From an uncultured Gemmatimonadota bacterium (lineage in GTDB: Bacteria > JAAXHH01): DNA of 64,000 bases. Shown one piece after another: positions 3,955 to 37,864 of this stretch. Under the pieces are notes generated by a model, which saw only the letters and a list, made by a program, of their open reading frames with translations, was not told where the DNA came from and searched no databases. Position numbers and translations under genes: made by a program. The DNA is taken from NCBI GenBank assembly GCA_951812955.1, contig OX638340.1, positions 3,584,001-3,648,000 on the forward strand. Direction: 5' to 3'. The stretch's first letter is position 1, and each line of letters starts with the position of its first letter.

Positions 3955-4262
3955 GGAACGTCCTCCCTGGATGCTGTCCCAAACGATCTGGATGGCGCAT
4001 GCAGAAATTTCTGATGTTATGCACTGAAAGATAGCCTGCGCGGCACCGCGCGCAACGACAAAAAGCGCTTCGAGGACCTCACGTGGGACGAAAAAAAACG
4101 ACGATCTGAAACCCTTCGACGCGTATACAAAATGCCTTGACAGTCCTGCGGGGGCCGGTTAACGTCACGTAGTCCCCGCCATGGGGTGACCACGGGTCTG
4201 TGACCTAAAATGAACGTTGTGTTTTTCCTTAAGAAAACTACGCCCCGAAACTACGGGATGCC

Positions 4263-5225
4263 GTGTCCGAAGAAACCGAAGTACCCGAGCAGATCGAAGC
4301 GCAACATCTCGACCGTCCGACGGTTCCCGAACTGGATGAATTCCTTGGCGTTCCCTTCAAGGTGCTCGACGACGGGTTCGTCCGCGTCGTGGACTACATG
4401 GGCAGCGATCACTCCATCGTGCAGGCCGCCCGTGTTTCCTACGGCGCCGGTACCCGGCAGGTCCACCAGGACCGGGGGCTGATCCGCTATCTCATGCGGC
4501 ATCAGCACACCACTCCCTTCGAGATGTGCGACATCAAGTTTCACCTGCGGGTGCCCATGGACTGCTGGCGCCAGTGGATCCGTCACCGGACGGCCTCTGT
4601 CAATGAATACAGCACCCGTTACTCGCTGGCGATCGATGCGGCGCAGACCACGCCGCCCGATGCGTGGCGGTTCCAGGCGCAGGGCAATCGCCAGGGCAGT
4701 GGCGGTTTCGTCGACGAAGCACAGGGAGCGCGTTTTACTGAGAAGGAACAGGAGCTTCAGGAGGCCGCCCGGTCCCGCTACGAAGAGCGCATCGAAGCCG
4801 GCATCGCCCGGGAACAGGCCCGTAAGGATCTTCCCCTTTCCACGTACACGGAAGCCTACTGGAAAGTGAATCTCCTGAACCTGCTTCGGTTCCTGCTCCT
4901 GCGCATGGACGATCACGCCCAGTGGGAGATCCGGCAGTACGCCCATCTGATCGGACACCGCATCGTGTCCGCCTGGTGTCCCGTGGCGTGGCAGGCCTTT
5001 CTCGACTACAGCGTGAACGCCATGCAGCTGACCCACCTGGACTGGGAGATCATCCGGGCGATTCAGGCTGGAGACGACAAGGCGATTCAGGATCTGCTGC
5101 TGGAGTACCGGTTCGTTTCGAAATCCGGTACCCTGCGCCGCAACCGGGAGCGGGACGAGCTCGAAACCAAGCTTCAGAAGCTGAATATCCCGATTCCATG
5201 GCGATCCGGTGATGATCCCGACTAA
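4263..5225 (+). CDS. thyX: Flavin-dependent thymidylate synthase ThyX
   Basis: ThyX signature RHRTASVNEYSTRYS (RHR-x7-S). GTG start 4263. AT-rich divergent intergenic region upstream. Confidence 0.85.
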   Translation: MSEETEVPEQIEAQHLDRPTVPELDEFLGVPFKVLDDGFVRVVDYMGSDHSIVQAARVSYGAGTRQVHQDRGLIRYLMRHQHTTPFEMCDIKFHLRVPMDCWRQWIRHRTASVNEYSTRYSLAIDAAQTTPPDAWRFQAQGNRQGSGGFVDEAQGARFTEKEQELQEAARSRYEERIEAGIAREQARKDLPLSTYTEAYWKVNLLNLLRFLLLRMDDHAQWEIRQYAHLIGHRIVSAWCPVAWQAFLDYSVNAMQLTHLDWEIIRAIQAGDDKAIQDLLLEYRFVSKSGTLRRNRERDELETKLQKLNIPIPWRSGDDPD

Positions 5226-33653: not shown

Positions 33654-33968
33654 GGCTTGATTGTCTTAAGGAGGTAACGCTGTCGTTCAGATATACGTAA
33701 CTTCCCGAAAAGAACGTTACGGTGTCGACGAAACACCGTGGAATAGCACACGATTGAAGGATTTGATGTATCCTATAAACTGAGTTGACCCCGTTTAGTA
33801 CGTATGAATTTTTGTACAACGAGGAGTGTTCGACACAACTCCAAGAAATGTGAATCTGTCTACAAACTGGTAATCTTGGTTTTATGTGCACCGGGTAAAG
33901 TCAGTCCGCGTGGGTATGACAGCGTTTATCGGAAAGCTCGGTCGTATGAGGATCAAGGAGTTGGCGTG

Positions 33969-34394
33969 ATGGCGAGAGTCCGAAAGTCAACTGCAATTGA
34001 ACGATTGCAGAGGTTGGTTGATGAGGCTTCAGAGCTGGATATGGAGGATGATAGCTCTCAGGAAGTTCAAAAATGGATACAGGACGTTTATACCGCTTTT
34101 ATCAACATATTCGGTGAGGATAGTTCTCAGTTTTCACGACTTCCGCAAAGTCACAAAACAACCCCAAGTGGGGTTCGTGAATACCTGAGATCAATGGTTT
34201 CCTGCGTCGCGTCTAGTCTCGATGAGATCAAGTACTTTCGGGAGGATGAAACAGAAACTGTGAAACAACCCTCAGAACAGGGTGACTTAAAAGCACCAGA
34301 TAAGGATTGTTACGACCAGGGATCGGCGACAAAAAAGTCTTTGTCGTTCATGGTCACGACGAGGCCGTCCTGCAGGCGGTTGCGAGATTTCTAG
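33969..34394 (+). CDS. Hypothetical acidic protein (possibly the N-terminal part of a frameshifted TIR-like gene)
   Basis: AAGGAG 33955-33960, ATG 33969. Lower-GC island. Its 3' end overlaps the next ORF by 88 nt, and an A6 run at 34323-34328 separates the two frames. Confidence 0.35.
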   Translation: MARVRKSTAIERLQRLVDEASELDMEDDSSQEVQKWIQDVYTAFINIFGEDSSQFSRLPQSHKTTPSGVREYLRSMVSCVASSLDEIKYFREDETETVKQPSEQGDLKAPDKDCYDQGSATKKSLSFMVTTRPSCRRLRDF

Positions 34395-34768
34395 AAAAGC
34401 TGAAACTCGAACCAGTAATCCTGCACGAACAGGCGAATCAAGGCCGCACGATCATAGAGAAATTTGAGGATCATTCGGATGCGAGTTTTGCCGTGGTTCT
34501 GCTGACACCTGACGACATAGGCGCGGCCGTTACGGATAAGGCCGATCTACGGCACCGAGCTCGTCAGAACGTAATTCTCGAACTCGGATTCTTCATTGGG
34601 AAGTTGGGTCGCAACAGGGTCTGTGCTCTGAAATCGCGTTGTGTCGAAAATCCGTCGGACGTCGATGGGATGGTCTATATCAACCTCGACGAGCCAGATG
34701 CATGGAAGACCGGACTCGTGCGGGAGTTAATGGCAGCTGGTTTCGCCATCGACGCTAACTGGGTTTAG
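34307..34768 (+). CDS. TIR-like (COG4271/CAP12-type) nucleotide-binding domain protein
   Basis: KKVFVVHGHDEAVLQAVARFLEKLKLEPVIL...FAVVLLTPDDIG...RARQNVILELGFFIGKLGRNRV matches the TIR-like COG4271 pattern. Only TTG 34307 is available as a start in this frame. Confidence 0.5.
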   Translation: MLRPGIGDKKVFVVHGHDEAVLQAVARFLEKLKLEPVILHEQANQGRTIIEKFEDHSDASFAVVLLTPDDIGAAVTDKADLRHRARQNVILELGFFIGKLGRNRVCALKSRCVENPSDVDGMVYINLDEPDAWKTGLVRELMAAGFAIDANWV

Positions 34769-34773
34769 CAGCC

Positions 34774-35079
34774 ATGAACGCACAGTTGTCGATTTCCAAA
34801 ACCGAATTGTCAGCCTATTGTAAAAATCATGGCATCCGACGATTAGCAATTTTCGGATCGGTGCTCCGGCCAGATTTTGGCCCGGAGAGCGATATCGACG
34901 TACTGGTCGAGTTCGCACCGAGTCACACTCCCGGTCTGCTGGGCATGGCCGGATTGGAGATTGAACTATCCGAATTGTTTGGCGGTCGGAAGGTGGACCT
35001 GCGGACTCCTGAGGAATTGAGTCGTTATTTTCGACAGAAGGTCATTGACACGGCAGAAGTTCTATATGTGCAGGGATGA
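34774..35079 (+). CDS. mntA: MntA-type nucleotidyltransferase (antitoxin of HepT/MNT toxin-antitoxin pairs)
   Basis: Minimal nucleotidyltransferase motif FGSVLRPDFGPESDIDVLVEF. 101 aa. Confidence 0.7.
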   Translation: MNAQLSISKTELSAYCKNHGIRRLAIFGSVLRPDFGPESDIDVLVEFAPSHTPGLLGMAGLEIELSELFGGRKVDLRTPEELSRYFRQKVIDTAEVLYVQG

Positions 35080-35182
35080 CGAAATCCCATTACAGCACAT
35101 GTTGGACGCCGAGCGGGAGGCAGTGTGTTTTTCACGAGGACACAGTTGGTTGCAGCCGCTAAGTCAAGCCTACCATATCGCG
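35066..35182 (+). pseudogene. hepT: HepT (DUF86) toxin remnant, truncated after 38 codons
   Basis: MCRDDEIPLQHMLDAEREAVCFSRGHSW... matches the HepT N-terminal block, then TAG at 35180-35182. Overlaps the mntA 3' end by 14 nt, as in intact MNT-HepT pairs. Confidence 0.45.
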
Positions 35183-35550
35183 CGTGAATAGTAATCCAGG
35201 ATGGTGGTGTCCGAAGTCACGAGCAGGCATTTGTTCAATTTGGCCGTGGCCACGATCGTGCGGTCGACAGGATCCCGGTGATCCCAGTCCAGTTCGAGAT
35301 TCCCAATCCATGTCCGCACGTCCACTGGACGTACTTCAATCCGTTCGGTCCGTTCCAGATTTTATGCGAAGTCCTGAATGGACAGGGGCAACACAAGATC
35401 GGCCTTTTTCACCCTAACGCCGATCTCCCAGATCGAGATCGAACTGATGCACACGCGGTCGGCTTGTGTAATCGTCTGGTCGTCGATTTTGGACAGGCGT
35501 TCGGGATCCAGTGTCCAGAAAACAAGCGCGGACGTATCCAGTACGACCAT
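35161..35550 (-). pseudogene. VapC-like PIN-domain toxin interrupted by an in-frame TAA
   Basis: MVVLDTSALV...SIWEIGVRVKK...DFA, then TAA (35362-35364), then the same frame continues ...DHRDPVDRTIVATAKLNKCLLVTSDTTILDYYSRAIW* carrying the remaining PIN acidic residues. Confidence 0.6.
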
Positions 35551-35780
35551 TACGTTTCATCCCATTCGTCGATTGTCGGTGTGTCGATGTCTCCATGATA
35601 GACGATCTTTCCCCGCAGTCCATCGAAGATCCTGTCAACCGATTGCTTTGGCTTTATGGGTTTTACACTGAGAACTGGACTCCGGTTATGCGTTACGATC
35701 AGATCCTCGCCCGATTCCTCGATTTCTCGAAATACCCGAAGCATATTGGCCTTCAGCTTGCTCTTCGATTTGAACAGCAT
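35550..35780 (-). CDS. Phd/YefM-family antitoxin
   Basis: KLKANMLRVFREIEESGEDLIVTHNRSPVLSVKP matches the Phd/YefM N-terminal fold pattern. The stop shares a nucleotide with the vapC start (TGATG). Confidence 0.55.
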   Translation of the reverse strand: MLFKSKSKLKANMLRVFREIEESGEDLIVTHNRSPVLSVKPIKPKQSVDRIFDGLRGKIVYHGDIDTPTIDEWDET

Positions 35781-35950
35781 ATGGACTCCAGTCTGTTTAG
35801 TAAAAGACTATGGGCATGACCCTGGTTATATTCGAAGGATTTCCTATGAACCGTCAAGGATTTATCTCATTCTCGGCAACTTAGAAGTCGGATTCCGTGC
35901 GACTATTCCGACTGTATAGGTATGATGTTCAATTCAATGTGTAAGACAGG

Positions 35951-35979
35951 TTGACAATCGACGTCCCGACGTCTAATAT
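35951..35979 (+). promoter_or_regulatory. Near-consensus sigma70-type promoter (TTGACA-N17-TAATAT) with tandem GACGTC palindromes in the spacer; predicted leaderless start for the MTase gene
   Basis: TTGACA 35951-35956, spacer atcGACGTCccGACGTC, TAATAT 35974-35979, ATG 35986. No RBS. Confidence 0.4.
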
Positions 35980-35985
35980 TAAAAT

Positions 35986-37122
35986 ATGGCCACTAACACC
36001 GAAAGATACGCTCCTGGTCGAGTACGAGATGCGATAATCCGGGTGATGAGACTAACGACAGAAGGTTTGTCTGCTAAACAGATCGCAGCGAGAGTTGCAA
36101 AGATAGAGGGCCACATGCCTGAGTCCTCGATCAGGTCTTATCTTCGTCTGAACACTCCAGAGACATTTGTTCGTGAAAGGAGGGGGGTATACCGCCTTAA
36201 GGTAGATCATGACAGCAGTCTGCAACGAACGATGTTCAGGAGTCCACCTTGGCAGGAACCCTTCAAGTTTGGATCGGCTACATTGTTTCATAGTGAATGT
36301 TTGGATTGGCTGGACGCAAGAGATGACCAATCAATCCACGCGATAGTTACCGATCCACCTTACGGTCTGCAGGAATACACAGCGAAAGAGCAGACGAAAC
36401 TCCGAAATAGGAAGGGGGGGATCTGGAGGATTCCTCCTGCATTTGATGGCCACGTTCGTTCGCCGTTACCAAGATTCACTACTTTAACCGATGAACAAAA
36501 ACTTTATCTTCGGGAGTTTTTCTATATCTGGTCTCGTCTACTGATCCCCAAGTTGGTACCTGGCGCCAACGTGGTCGTTGCCTCCAATCCACTACTCTCC
36601 CACATTGTCGCCGGCGCTATAGCGGATTCGGGGCTTGAAAGACGCGGCGACATCGTCAGGCTTGTTATGACTATGCGTGGCGGTGATCGGCCAAAAGCGG
36701 CACATGATGAATTCAAGGACGTCAGTGTGCTCCCCAGATCAATGTGGGAGCCATGGCTGATATTCCGTAGGCCTGTGGAGGGAAGAGTACAGGACAACCT
36801 CAGAAAATGGAAAACGGGAGGGTTTCGACGGCCGACTGGACTCAAGCCATTCGGAGATGTTATTCAATCTTCCCCGACCAGAAAAAATGAGAAGGCGATA
36901 GCACCTCACCCCAGCCTTAAGCCACAATCCTTCTTACGACGCCTCGTGAGGGGTGTTCTTCCACTAGGTGAGGGTATAGTTGTCGATCCCTTTGCCGGCG
37001 CTGGCTCTACTCTCGCGGCCGCTGAAGCAGTTGGGTACGAGTCAATCGGAATAGAAAAGGATTCTCTGTACTTCAATATGGCCAAGGAAGCACTACAGCC
37101 ACTAGCCGAGCTCGAAGTGTAG
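35986..37122 (+). CDS. Beta-class DNA methyltransferase (N6A/N4C type) with N-terminal HTH domain
   Basis: Motif IV TDPPYG upstream of motif I VVDPFAGAGST (beta-class order). N-terminal ~80 aa HTH-like (LSAKQIAARVAKIEGHMPESSIRSYL). Lower-GC island. Confidence 0.8.
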   Translation: MATNTERYAPGRVRDAIIRVMRLTTEGLSAKQIAARVAKIEGHMPESSIRSYLRLNTPETFVRERRGVYRLKVDHDSSLQRTMFRSPPWQEPFKFGSATLFHSECLDWLDARDDQSIHAIVTDPPYGLQEYTAKEQTKLRNRKGGIWRIPPAFDGHVRSPLPRFTTLTDEQKLYLREFFYIWSRLLIPKLVPGANVVVASNPLLSHIVAGAIADSGLERRGDIVRLVMTMRGGDRPKAAHDEFKDVSVLPRSMWEPWLIFRRPVEGRVQDNLRKWKTGGFRRPTGLKPFGDVIQSSPTRKNEKAIAPHPSLKPQSFLRRLVRGVLPLGEGIVVDPFAGAGSTLAAAEAVGYESIGIEKDSLYFNMAKEALQPLAELEV

Positions 37123-37141
37123 GGACTGAAGGAATCCTCAA

Positions 37142-37672
37142 TTACCTGTCTAGGTAAATCCAGTTCTCGCGAAGTTTACTCACGCCAAAGCGGTCAAGTG
37201 TGGCAGTTCGTGTGCCGAGTTCCCCTCTCGGATTGCGTCTAAAGTCTTCGATGGTTACCCTAGATAGGTAGACTTCCCTAAACGTCATTGGAAGTCTTGA
37301 TGAAGAGGGTTCGGTTTTGTTATCGACCTCGTATACAAATACACACATCCACTGGTCGCGCGCGCCATGTGTATCGACCGCACCGCCTTTTTTCTTCGTG
37401 GTTTTGATTTCAAGACCCTGATCTCCCGACTTAACGGAGTTTTCTGCGTAAACTCCCTGAACGAGAAGGTCAGGATGGCCATTGAAGTAGTTGTTTTCAG
37501 TAAGCACCCTTGAATGTTTAGCCAGACTGGCCGTCAGCATGTCCGATAGCACACCAGACATGATAGCGGGTCTCAACATATCGTCAAGCCGTTCCAGTCC
37601 GCGGTCTACCAGATGAGAATTGACATCGTGGAAGAAATCATAAACGTCCTGCATTGCCGACTCGAAATCCAT
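37142..37672 (-). CDS. Putative type II restriction endonuclease (PD-(D/E)xK)
   Basis: Convergent with the MTase, 19 bp tail-to-tail. GHPDLLVQGVYAENSVKSGDQGLEIKT gives PD...EIK spacing. Low GC with a very AT-rich upstream region. Confidence 0.45.
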   Translation of the reverse strand: MDFESAMQDVYDFFHDVNSHLVDRGLERLDDMLRPAIMSGVLSDMLTASLAKHSRVLTENNYFNGHPDLLVQGVYAENSVKSGDQGLEIKTTKKKGGAVDTHGARDQWMCVFVYEVDNKTEPSSSRLPMTFREVYLSRVTIEDFRRNPRGELGTRTATLDRFGVSKLRENWIYLDR

Positions 37673-37864
37673 AATGCGGAGCTGATATGGTAAAGTCGAG
37701 TCAGGATTGAATGATTCTCTTACTACGACATTTCTGGATTGTTTGATCCGTTCGTCTCCTTCATGTTATCTGAATGCATGTTTCAACAAAATGTGATTTA
37801 CTGTGAATTTGTAAACCACTACCTACAATATCATGACCTAGAATCTCATGAAAGTAAAATCAAT

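Follow-up and report, generated by a model that had tools for sequence, protein, structure and literature searches.

A widespread restriction-modification family with a winged-helix methylase and a putative GACGTC operator in its predicted leaderless promoter

We analysed a 64,000-nucleotide stretch of DNA (the window) from an uncultured Gemmatimonadota bacterium (assembly GCA_951812955.1, contig OX638340.1, positions 3,584,001 to 3,648,000 of the forward strand). It carries a convergent pair of genes for an amino-methyltransferase (the methylase, M) and a nuclease (R), and the promoter of M holds two GACGTC palindromes. An earlier note on this DNA had read the pair as a Type II restriction-modification (R-M) system whose methylase may control its own promoter. 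Here we describe the two genes, the promoter and their relatives, and evaluate how M would be regulated.

The methylase promoter in the window

Homologous loci were collected by a genome scan with R as the query, which returned 80 loci from more than 15 phyla, including Gemmatimonadota, Chloroflexota, Nitrospirota, Proteobacteria, Verrucomicrobiota, Planctomycetota, Chlamydiota, Firmicutes and others. About 78 of the 80 have M beside R. The promoter layout was counted, with sites anchored on the hexamers, in 74 of these, namely the loci where the element was found among those with an intact M N-terminus and upstream DNA. The AlphaFold2 model of M was built on 32 homologues, and residue conservation in R was likewise read from 32 homologues. 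The features of the M promoter and gene are as follows.

35951..35956, + strand: -35 hexamer TTGACA of the M promoter (sequence; TTGAC has 0.8-1.3 bits across the 74 loci, 3-4 nt before the hexamer pair)
35960..35973, no strand: GACGTC-CC-GACGTC, two palindromes that repeat at 8 bp and fill the spacer; putative operator, probably two cognate sites (74 loci, about 2 bits per position)
35974..35979, + strand: -10 hexamer TAATAT, ending 6 nt before the ATG (sequence; TA...T pattern kept across loci)
35986..37122, + strand: M gene, encoding a 378-aa beta-class N6/N4 amino-methyltransferase with an N-terminal winged helix (Pfam, PADLOC, model)
36013..36198, + strand: winged-helix domain of M, residues 10-71, modelled as H-H-H-beta-beta (AlphaFold2)

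The 17-nt spacer between the -35 and -10 hexamers, atcGACGTCccGACGTC, contains GACGTC at 35960-35965 and 35968-35973, and 6 nt (taaaat) lie between the -10 hexamer and the ATG at 35986. This agrees with the earlier description of a TTGACA-N17-TAATAT promoter with two palindromes in its spacer. Judged by these elements, it is a strong sigma-70-type promoter. Because the start codon is so close to the -10 hexamer, there is no space for a 5' untranslated region or a Shine-Dalgarno sequence, and the M mRNA is predicted to be leaderless. The exact 14-mer GACGTCNNGACGTC occurs once in the 64 kb, against about 0.01 expected from the 28 single GACGTC sites.

Conservation of the promoter across relatives

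We found that M is convergent with R and directly downstream of it in about 78 of the 80 loci, and that it aligns from residue 1. The common layout in the 74 loci is TTGAC(A/T)-N3-4-GACGTC-NN-GACGTC-TAnnnT, with the start codon mostly 12-13 nt after the 14-mer. Information content reaches 1.6-2.0 bits at the hexamers, part of which is a consequence of anchoring the sites on them, 0.8-1.3 bits at the -35 element, 0.7-1.0 bits at the T, A and T of the -10 element and about 0 in the flanks. The two nucleotides between the hexamers are variable, and the flanks of the loci are unrelated. Variant hexamers (AACGTC, GACGTT, AACGTT) differ at the outer positions only, and the ACGT core is never altered. 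The recurrence of this layout across phyla supports the claim of a leaderless, operator-bearing promoter.

The same R-M pair is also carried by plasmids. L081 (pCAV1321-4938, 840-930) and 13 other enterobacterial plasmids have it, these being mobilisable ColE1-type plasmids of about 4.9 kb from clinical Klebsiella pneumoniae, Citrobacter freundii and Raoultella, and another copy lies on a 21-kb Pseudomonas aeruginosa plasmid. The L081-type copies retain the tandem, with a third GACGTC 16 nt upstream and the ATG about 50 nt downstream.

The methylase and its winged helix

Pfam PF01555 (N6_N4_Mtase) covers residues 117-368 of M, and the PADLOC Type II methylase model PDLC03215, whose specificity is not stated, matches residues 104-377 (E 1.8e-100). 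The DPPY of motif IV (residue 123) lies ahead of the FAGAGS of motif I (residue 336), which is the beta-class order that had been noted before. M probably methylates N6-adenine.

The first 100 or so residues of M are outside the PDLC03215 match. The AlphaFold2 model of M has a mean predicted local distance difference test score (pLDDT) of 63, with 72-88 in the N-terminal domain. The elements of this domain (H10-22, H30-41, H46-55, E61-65, E68-71) form a canonical winged helix, so that the helix-turn-helix (HTH)-like domain of about 80 aa suspected at the N-terminus does model as a DNA-binding fold. The winged helix is conserved to the same degree as the catalytic domain. HARE-HTH (PF05066) gave sub-threshold matches in 8 of 29 winged-helix homologues (best E 2.6e-4), and on the winged helix of the window it gave E 0.087 and 13.7 bits against a cut-off of 25.9. 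The winged-helix profile had no meaningful match among PDB sequences. None of its 190 representative matches showed the domain in another architecture; all belong to the same methylase family, its fragments or the stand-alone form. On the domain matches and the model, M is a beta-class amino-methyltransferase with an N-terminal winged helix.

Public annotations often misplace the start of M-family genes, with products of 338 aa or 382-395 aa as the result; a leaderless start presumably lacks the ribosome-binding site that gene finders use. This is a warning that such methylase starts are often mis-called.

The nuclease and its start codon

The R gene and its surroundings have the following features.

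37142..37747, - strand: R gene, about 201 codons, probable start ATC at 37747-37745 (conserved in-frame extension upstream of ATG 37672)
37403..37477, - strand: PD-X19-EIK catalytic motif (P66, D67, E88, K90 in 176-aa numbering; sequence)
37756..37761, - strand: Shine-Dalgarno AAGGAG of R, with 8 nt between it and the ATC start (same AAGGAG-N8-ATC in relatives L002 and L003)
37123..37141, no strand: tail-to-tail spacer of 19 nt from M stop to R stop, no terminator (sequence)

R had been described as a 176-aa protein with a PD-(23 aa)-EIK motif, consistent with a restriction endonuclease. Its model has a mean pLDDT of 76, and fold comparison placed it with EcoRV/NaeI-like PD-(D/E)XK restriction endonucleases; P92, D93, E113 and K115 of PD...EIK are invariant in the 32 homologues. 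R had no match in Pfam, NCBIfam, PADLOC or PDB sequences, and was identified by fold comparison only. The nuclease assignment therefore stands, as does the Type II R-M pair, while the spacing within the motif is X19 and the gene is longer than 176 codons.

The open reading frame (ORF) from ATG 37672 spans 37142-37672, and the conserved frame runs 25 codons farther upstream. Homologues of R are mostly 200 aa long and start with MPITRNVVD..KFN...LPYELR. The extension in the window is in frame and conserved, and it contains no ATG, GTG or TTG. Among relatives the start codon is ATG in 53, GTG in 12 and TTG in 2, and it is ATC in the window and its two closest relatives, L002 and L003. Since the extension is conserved and, in all three, a perfect AAGGAG precedes the ATC by 8 nt, R probably has 201 codons and starts at a weak, non-canonical ATC. 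The 5' region had also been called very AT-rich. The first 150 nt after ATG 37672 are 51% GC, and only the part upstream (37673-37864) is AT-rich (33-39% GC).

Within this extension (37720-37730) the window differs by at least one base from locus L001 (GenBank contig JAPOOT010000289, sponge-associated Gemmatimonadetes metagenome-assembled genome APA_bin_41), encoding Val where L001 has Ala. By this comparison, the window comes from a slightly different assembly or strain.

Homologues of R number more than 8000, all of them unnamed ("hypothetical"), and the family has at least 8000 protein clusters for each of M and R. R identity is 75-94% across Gemmatimonadota, Chloroflexota, Nitrospirota, Proteobacteria, Planctomycetota, Verrucomicrobiota, Chlamydiota and Firmicutes, and M identity is 55-96% over the same loci. 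Such conservation of R is unusual for a restriction enzyme, and R is more conserved than M.

In 74 of 74 loci, the 3' ends of M and R overlap by up to 38 nt or leave a gap of at most 22 nt. As the genes are convergent, with touching 3' ends and no terminator, their transcripts must collide. No hexamer element was found upstream of R, where a single GACGTC within 300 nt occurs in 7 of 77 loci against about 13 expected from background density. The only case with a possible site at the R promoter is L088 (Microvirga yunnanensis), described below.

The tandem follows a linked DNA-binding module

The relatives of the pair differ in the DNA-binding module that accompanies M. Plasmids of Gordonia, M. 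avium and Iamia carry the winged helix as a separate ORF of about 80 aa that overlaps the start of a shorter M, and these free-standing genes also lie behind a leaderless GACGTC-NN-GACGTC promoter. Metagenomes contain complete short winged-helix homologues of 68-75 aa. L088 has a free winged-helix gene ahead of M, and a single GACGTC by a TTGAC -35 element at each of the two promoters, that of M and that of R (2728, 4676).

Nine relatives have no M-linked module, and all nine are without the tandem. Two of them (L068 and L080) belong to the main family and have no winged helix. A third, L085 (Acidiphilium multivorum pACMV5), also without a winged helix, has instead a classical 73-aa HTH C gene (4087-4308) that overlaps the R start. 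The other six (L086, L087, L089, L091, L093, L094), which like L085 belong to the sister family described next, show neither a recognisable regulator nor a GACGTC close to the promoter.

A sister family has methylases of 313-333 aa and an R that is about 35% identical. Its members L092 and L101-L107 (four distinct sequences) have an ORF of about 61 aa (..IV(I/V)SLRL......AFRTEAARRN.RL..) overlapping the M start. A GACGTC tandem with the same 8-bp period, double in most and triple in L092, lies 12-16 nt before the start of this ORF (L092 2449-2470; L101 1012-1025; L103 547-560; L106 2286-2299). The small protein gave only sub-threshold Pfam matches (RHH_4, E 0.11; BrnA_antitoxin, E 0.059), and its sequence provisionally suggests a probable ribbon-helix-helix protein. 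MetJ is likewise a ribbon-helix-helix protein, and the sister-clade consensus AGACGTCT-AGACGTCT equals two MetJ met boxes. A scan of viral contigs for a triple GACGTC tandem gave 6 unrelated loci, none with an M or R homologue.

Taken together, the tandem occurs essentially only where a DNA-binding module is genetically coupled to M. It therefore appears to be the binding site of that module, which argues against a promoter switched by methylation only.

GACGTC as the probable target of the enzymes

Two apparently unrelated modules are associated with the same palindrome in the same phase. This suggests that the hexamer is most simply set by a shared methylase target, and GACGTC is probably the sequence that M methylates and R cuts, as for AatII and ZraI. 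M.AatII, an amino-methyltransferase, makes G(m6A)CGTC (PMC3287169), where m6A is N6-methyladenine; this product was all that we found in the literature on the specificity of the methylase family. By its fold, R groups with the EcoRV-like enzymes, a branch that leaves blunt ends or 3' overhangs, and this is compatible with ZraI- or AatII-type cleavage. The earlier note had offered an HTH operator and the system's own recognition site as alternatives. Each is probably partly right, as the tandem tracks the module and two unrelated modules share the hexamer.

Proposed regulation and alternative explanations

We propose, with a probability of roughly 0.65, that the winged helix autorepresses the M promoter at an operator made of two probable own-target GACGTC copies. 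The winged helix of M would bind the 14-bp element and block RNA polymerase. As the promoter around this spacer already matches the consensus, binding there would be expected to repress and not to activate. In a naive cell, a burst of methylase would be followed by shut-off of the M promoter to a low steady level, and if GACGTC is the target, the operator consists of two cognate sites. R would be expressed from a separate upstream region that is not regulated, and its start codon is weak (ATC in the window and, in many relatives, GTG or TTG). Early full-strength transcription of M may damp R by collision or antisense RNA, and later autorepression of M would relieve this interference. A delay of R is suggested by the convergent transcripts and the weak R start codons.

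Several observations weigh against this proposal. Confidence in the models that show the winged helix and the nuclease fold is moderate (mean pLDDT 63 for M and 76 for R), and the 8-bp spacing of the hexamers is tighter than usual for a winged-helix dimer. Leaderlessness is not universal, as the enterobacterial plasmid copies have a leader of about 50 nt. L090, in a phage-like context, has a winged-helix remnant and no GACGTC. When members of both methylase clades were used as queries, no AatII-type names appeared among the matches. Neither the window (28 single sites observed, 31.5 expected) nor the flanks of 79 loci (ratio 0.84, rank 33 of 64 palindromes) nor the R-M genes show a depletion of GACGTC; this lack of depletion is uninformative on specificity rather than negative.

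A more specific version, which we regard as tentative and rather unlikely, is that the two G(m6A)CGTC sites of the operator are read in a methylation-dependent manner by the M-linked reader, the winged helix here and the ribbon-helix-helix-like protein in the sister clade. The promoter would then report the methylation state of the cell, with full activity on unmethylated sites, as in a new host, or on hemimethylated ones, as right after replication, and with no activity once both strands carry the methyl groups. Such a reader is conceivable because prokaryotic winged helices of the DpnI type, fused to nucleases, read adenine methylation, though as 6mApT in GATC (PMC11037411). If true, this would be a direct epigenetic feedback for methylase homeostasis that evolved at least twice with different folds, across more than 15 phyla.

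A plain SsoII-like operator is an alternative that we hold to be similarly doubtful. The 14-bp element would be private to the winged helix, and the R-M target would be another site. Known HTH-methylases do have operators distinct from their methylation sites (PMC3874152), host DNA does not avoid GACGTC, and the GACGTC specificity of M is only predicted. However, each half of the element is a perfect 6-bp palindrome, which is needless for a dimeric HTH operator. The same tandem is also paired with the unrelated, probably ribbon-helix-helix protein of the sister clade, and the characterised GACGTC methylase M.AatII is, like M, an amino-methyltransferase.

Methylation of the cognate sites could also directly alter the use of the promoter by RNA polymerase, as in CfrBI, with the winged helix employed otherwise, for example in finding or holding DNA. 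Control of an M promoter by cognate-site methylation is documented (CfrBI, LlaDII), and the hexamers abut the -10 element, so that m6A would fall at about -14 and -17. This explanation is improbable, since the tandem is missing in 9 of 9 relatives without a linked DNA-binding module and present in nearly all relatives that have one, even as a separate protein, and a winged helix encoded apart from the methylase cannot act as its targeting domain. Finally, it is very improbable that the tandem is non-regulatory or is bound by something other than the winged helix, be it the catalytic domain of M, a host factor or the nuclease. In favour of this, methylases bind the sites that they modify, and the MetJ met-box consensus, AGACGTCT in tandem, is an example of GACGTC repeats in 8-bp phase that can serve as a protein-binding array, but the hosts span more than 15 phyla, mostly without MetJ, and the tandem lies exactly between the -35 and -10 elements of the gene for the DNA-binding module and co-occurs with that module.

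Genomic neighbourhood

The pair lies in a low-GC island (33700-37860, about 4 kb; 49% GC versus 62% in the flanks) that contains all the defence and toxin-antitoxin genes. The other genes of the island are as follows.

33804-34768, + strand: TIR-domain defence gene of PADLOC type PDC-S35 / CAP12-Pycsar-TIR, split in two overlapping ORFs (33804-34394, 34307-34768)
34774-35079: MNT-type nucleotidyltransferase, followed by a short ORF resembling a truncated HEPN partner
35362-35550 and 35170-35325, - strand: PIN-domain gene in two pieces
35550-35780, - strand: 76-aa upstream ORF

The TIR gene is a frameshift or pseudogene, since its two ORFs match the N- and C-terminal parts of one profile, and 34774-35780 holds remnants of toxin-antitoxin modules. 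No tRNA gene was found in 28-44 kb of the window, and no integrase was seen among the listed ORFs. The pair is probably a Type IIP R-M module, and it lies inside this low-GC defence island.

Significance

This is a very widespread, previously uncharacterised R-M family; control by an HTH-methylase and control by cognate sites are already known modes. Pfam has no family for the R nuclease and none for the winged helix. As far as the sequences indicate, what is new here is a winged-helix amino-methyltransferase, a leaderless promoter with a putative two-site operator in its spacer, and a regulator that is swapped among relatives. The family offers a natural experiment, in which homologous enzymes are accompanied by a fused winged helix, a free winged helix, a ribbon-helix-helix-like protein, a C protein or none. 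If the hexamers are cognate, the locus would be a small, self-contained example of a methylase that senses its product at the promoter of its own gene, bearing on the safe establishment of R-M systems in new hosts and on steady methylation levels, and R would define a new small family of GACGTC-type nucleases.

Comparison with known systems

EcoRII, SsoII, Ecl18kI, ScrFI and MspI are established cases in which the methylase represses its own gene through an N-terminal HTH (PMC3874152; PMC2760811). M resembles these enzymes in its N-terminal DNA-binding extension (about 70-100 aa) and in a putative operator that overlaps its own promoter. The SsoII-type enzymes are C5-cytosine methyltransferases, whereas M is a beta-class amino-methyltransferase with a winged helix. 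Their R and M genes are divergent and share a regulatory region, and binding there also raises R expression, while the genes here are convergent with no operator at R. Their operators are unrelated to the methylation site, in contrast to the two probable cognate sites of the window, where the M mRNA is also predicted to be leaderless. Since the catalytic domain is beta-class, the genes are convergent and no shared operator lies at R, the system falls outside the SsoII group. The likeness to SsoII, Ecl18kI and MspI drawn in the earlier note thus holds as a functional analogy and not as homology.

The M promoters of CfrBI and LlaDII are controlled by the methylation state of cognate sites (PMC3874152). 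They share with M palindromic sites of Type IIP style within the promoter. The window differs in having two putative cognate sites in a fixed 8-bp phase, which fill the spacer and come with a dedicated DNA-binding module. Promoter-interference logic comparable to that proposed for R is documented for Ecl18kI and EcoRI (PMC3874152).

C-protein systems (PvuII, AhdI, Esp1396I) offer a parallel: a small DNA-binding protein that regulates its own gene is translated from a leaderless mRNA, as is typical of C-protein genes (PMC2175313), and AhdI and Esp1396I are convergent like the pair in the window. Their C protein has an Xre-type HTH, is co-transcribed with R and activates first, whereas the winged helix is fused to or co-transcribed with M. 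No ORF for a small Xre-type C protein lies upstream of R in the window, and a C gene was found only in the distant relative L085.

The pair resembles AatII and ZraI in three respects: M.AatII is an amino-methyltransferase, the promoter hexamer is GACGTC, and the R fold is in the blunt and 3'-overhang branch. R.AatII is much larger than the 201-aa R. DpnI-type systems likewise have a winged helix in a restriction system, where it binds a short palindromic methylated site. The context here would be 6mApC and the domain is on the methylase, and the likeness is one without shown homology. By analogy, the system in the window probably works like HTH-methylase autorepression, and perhaps also like cognate-site control.

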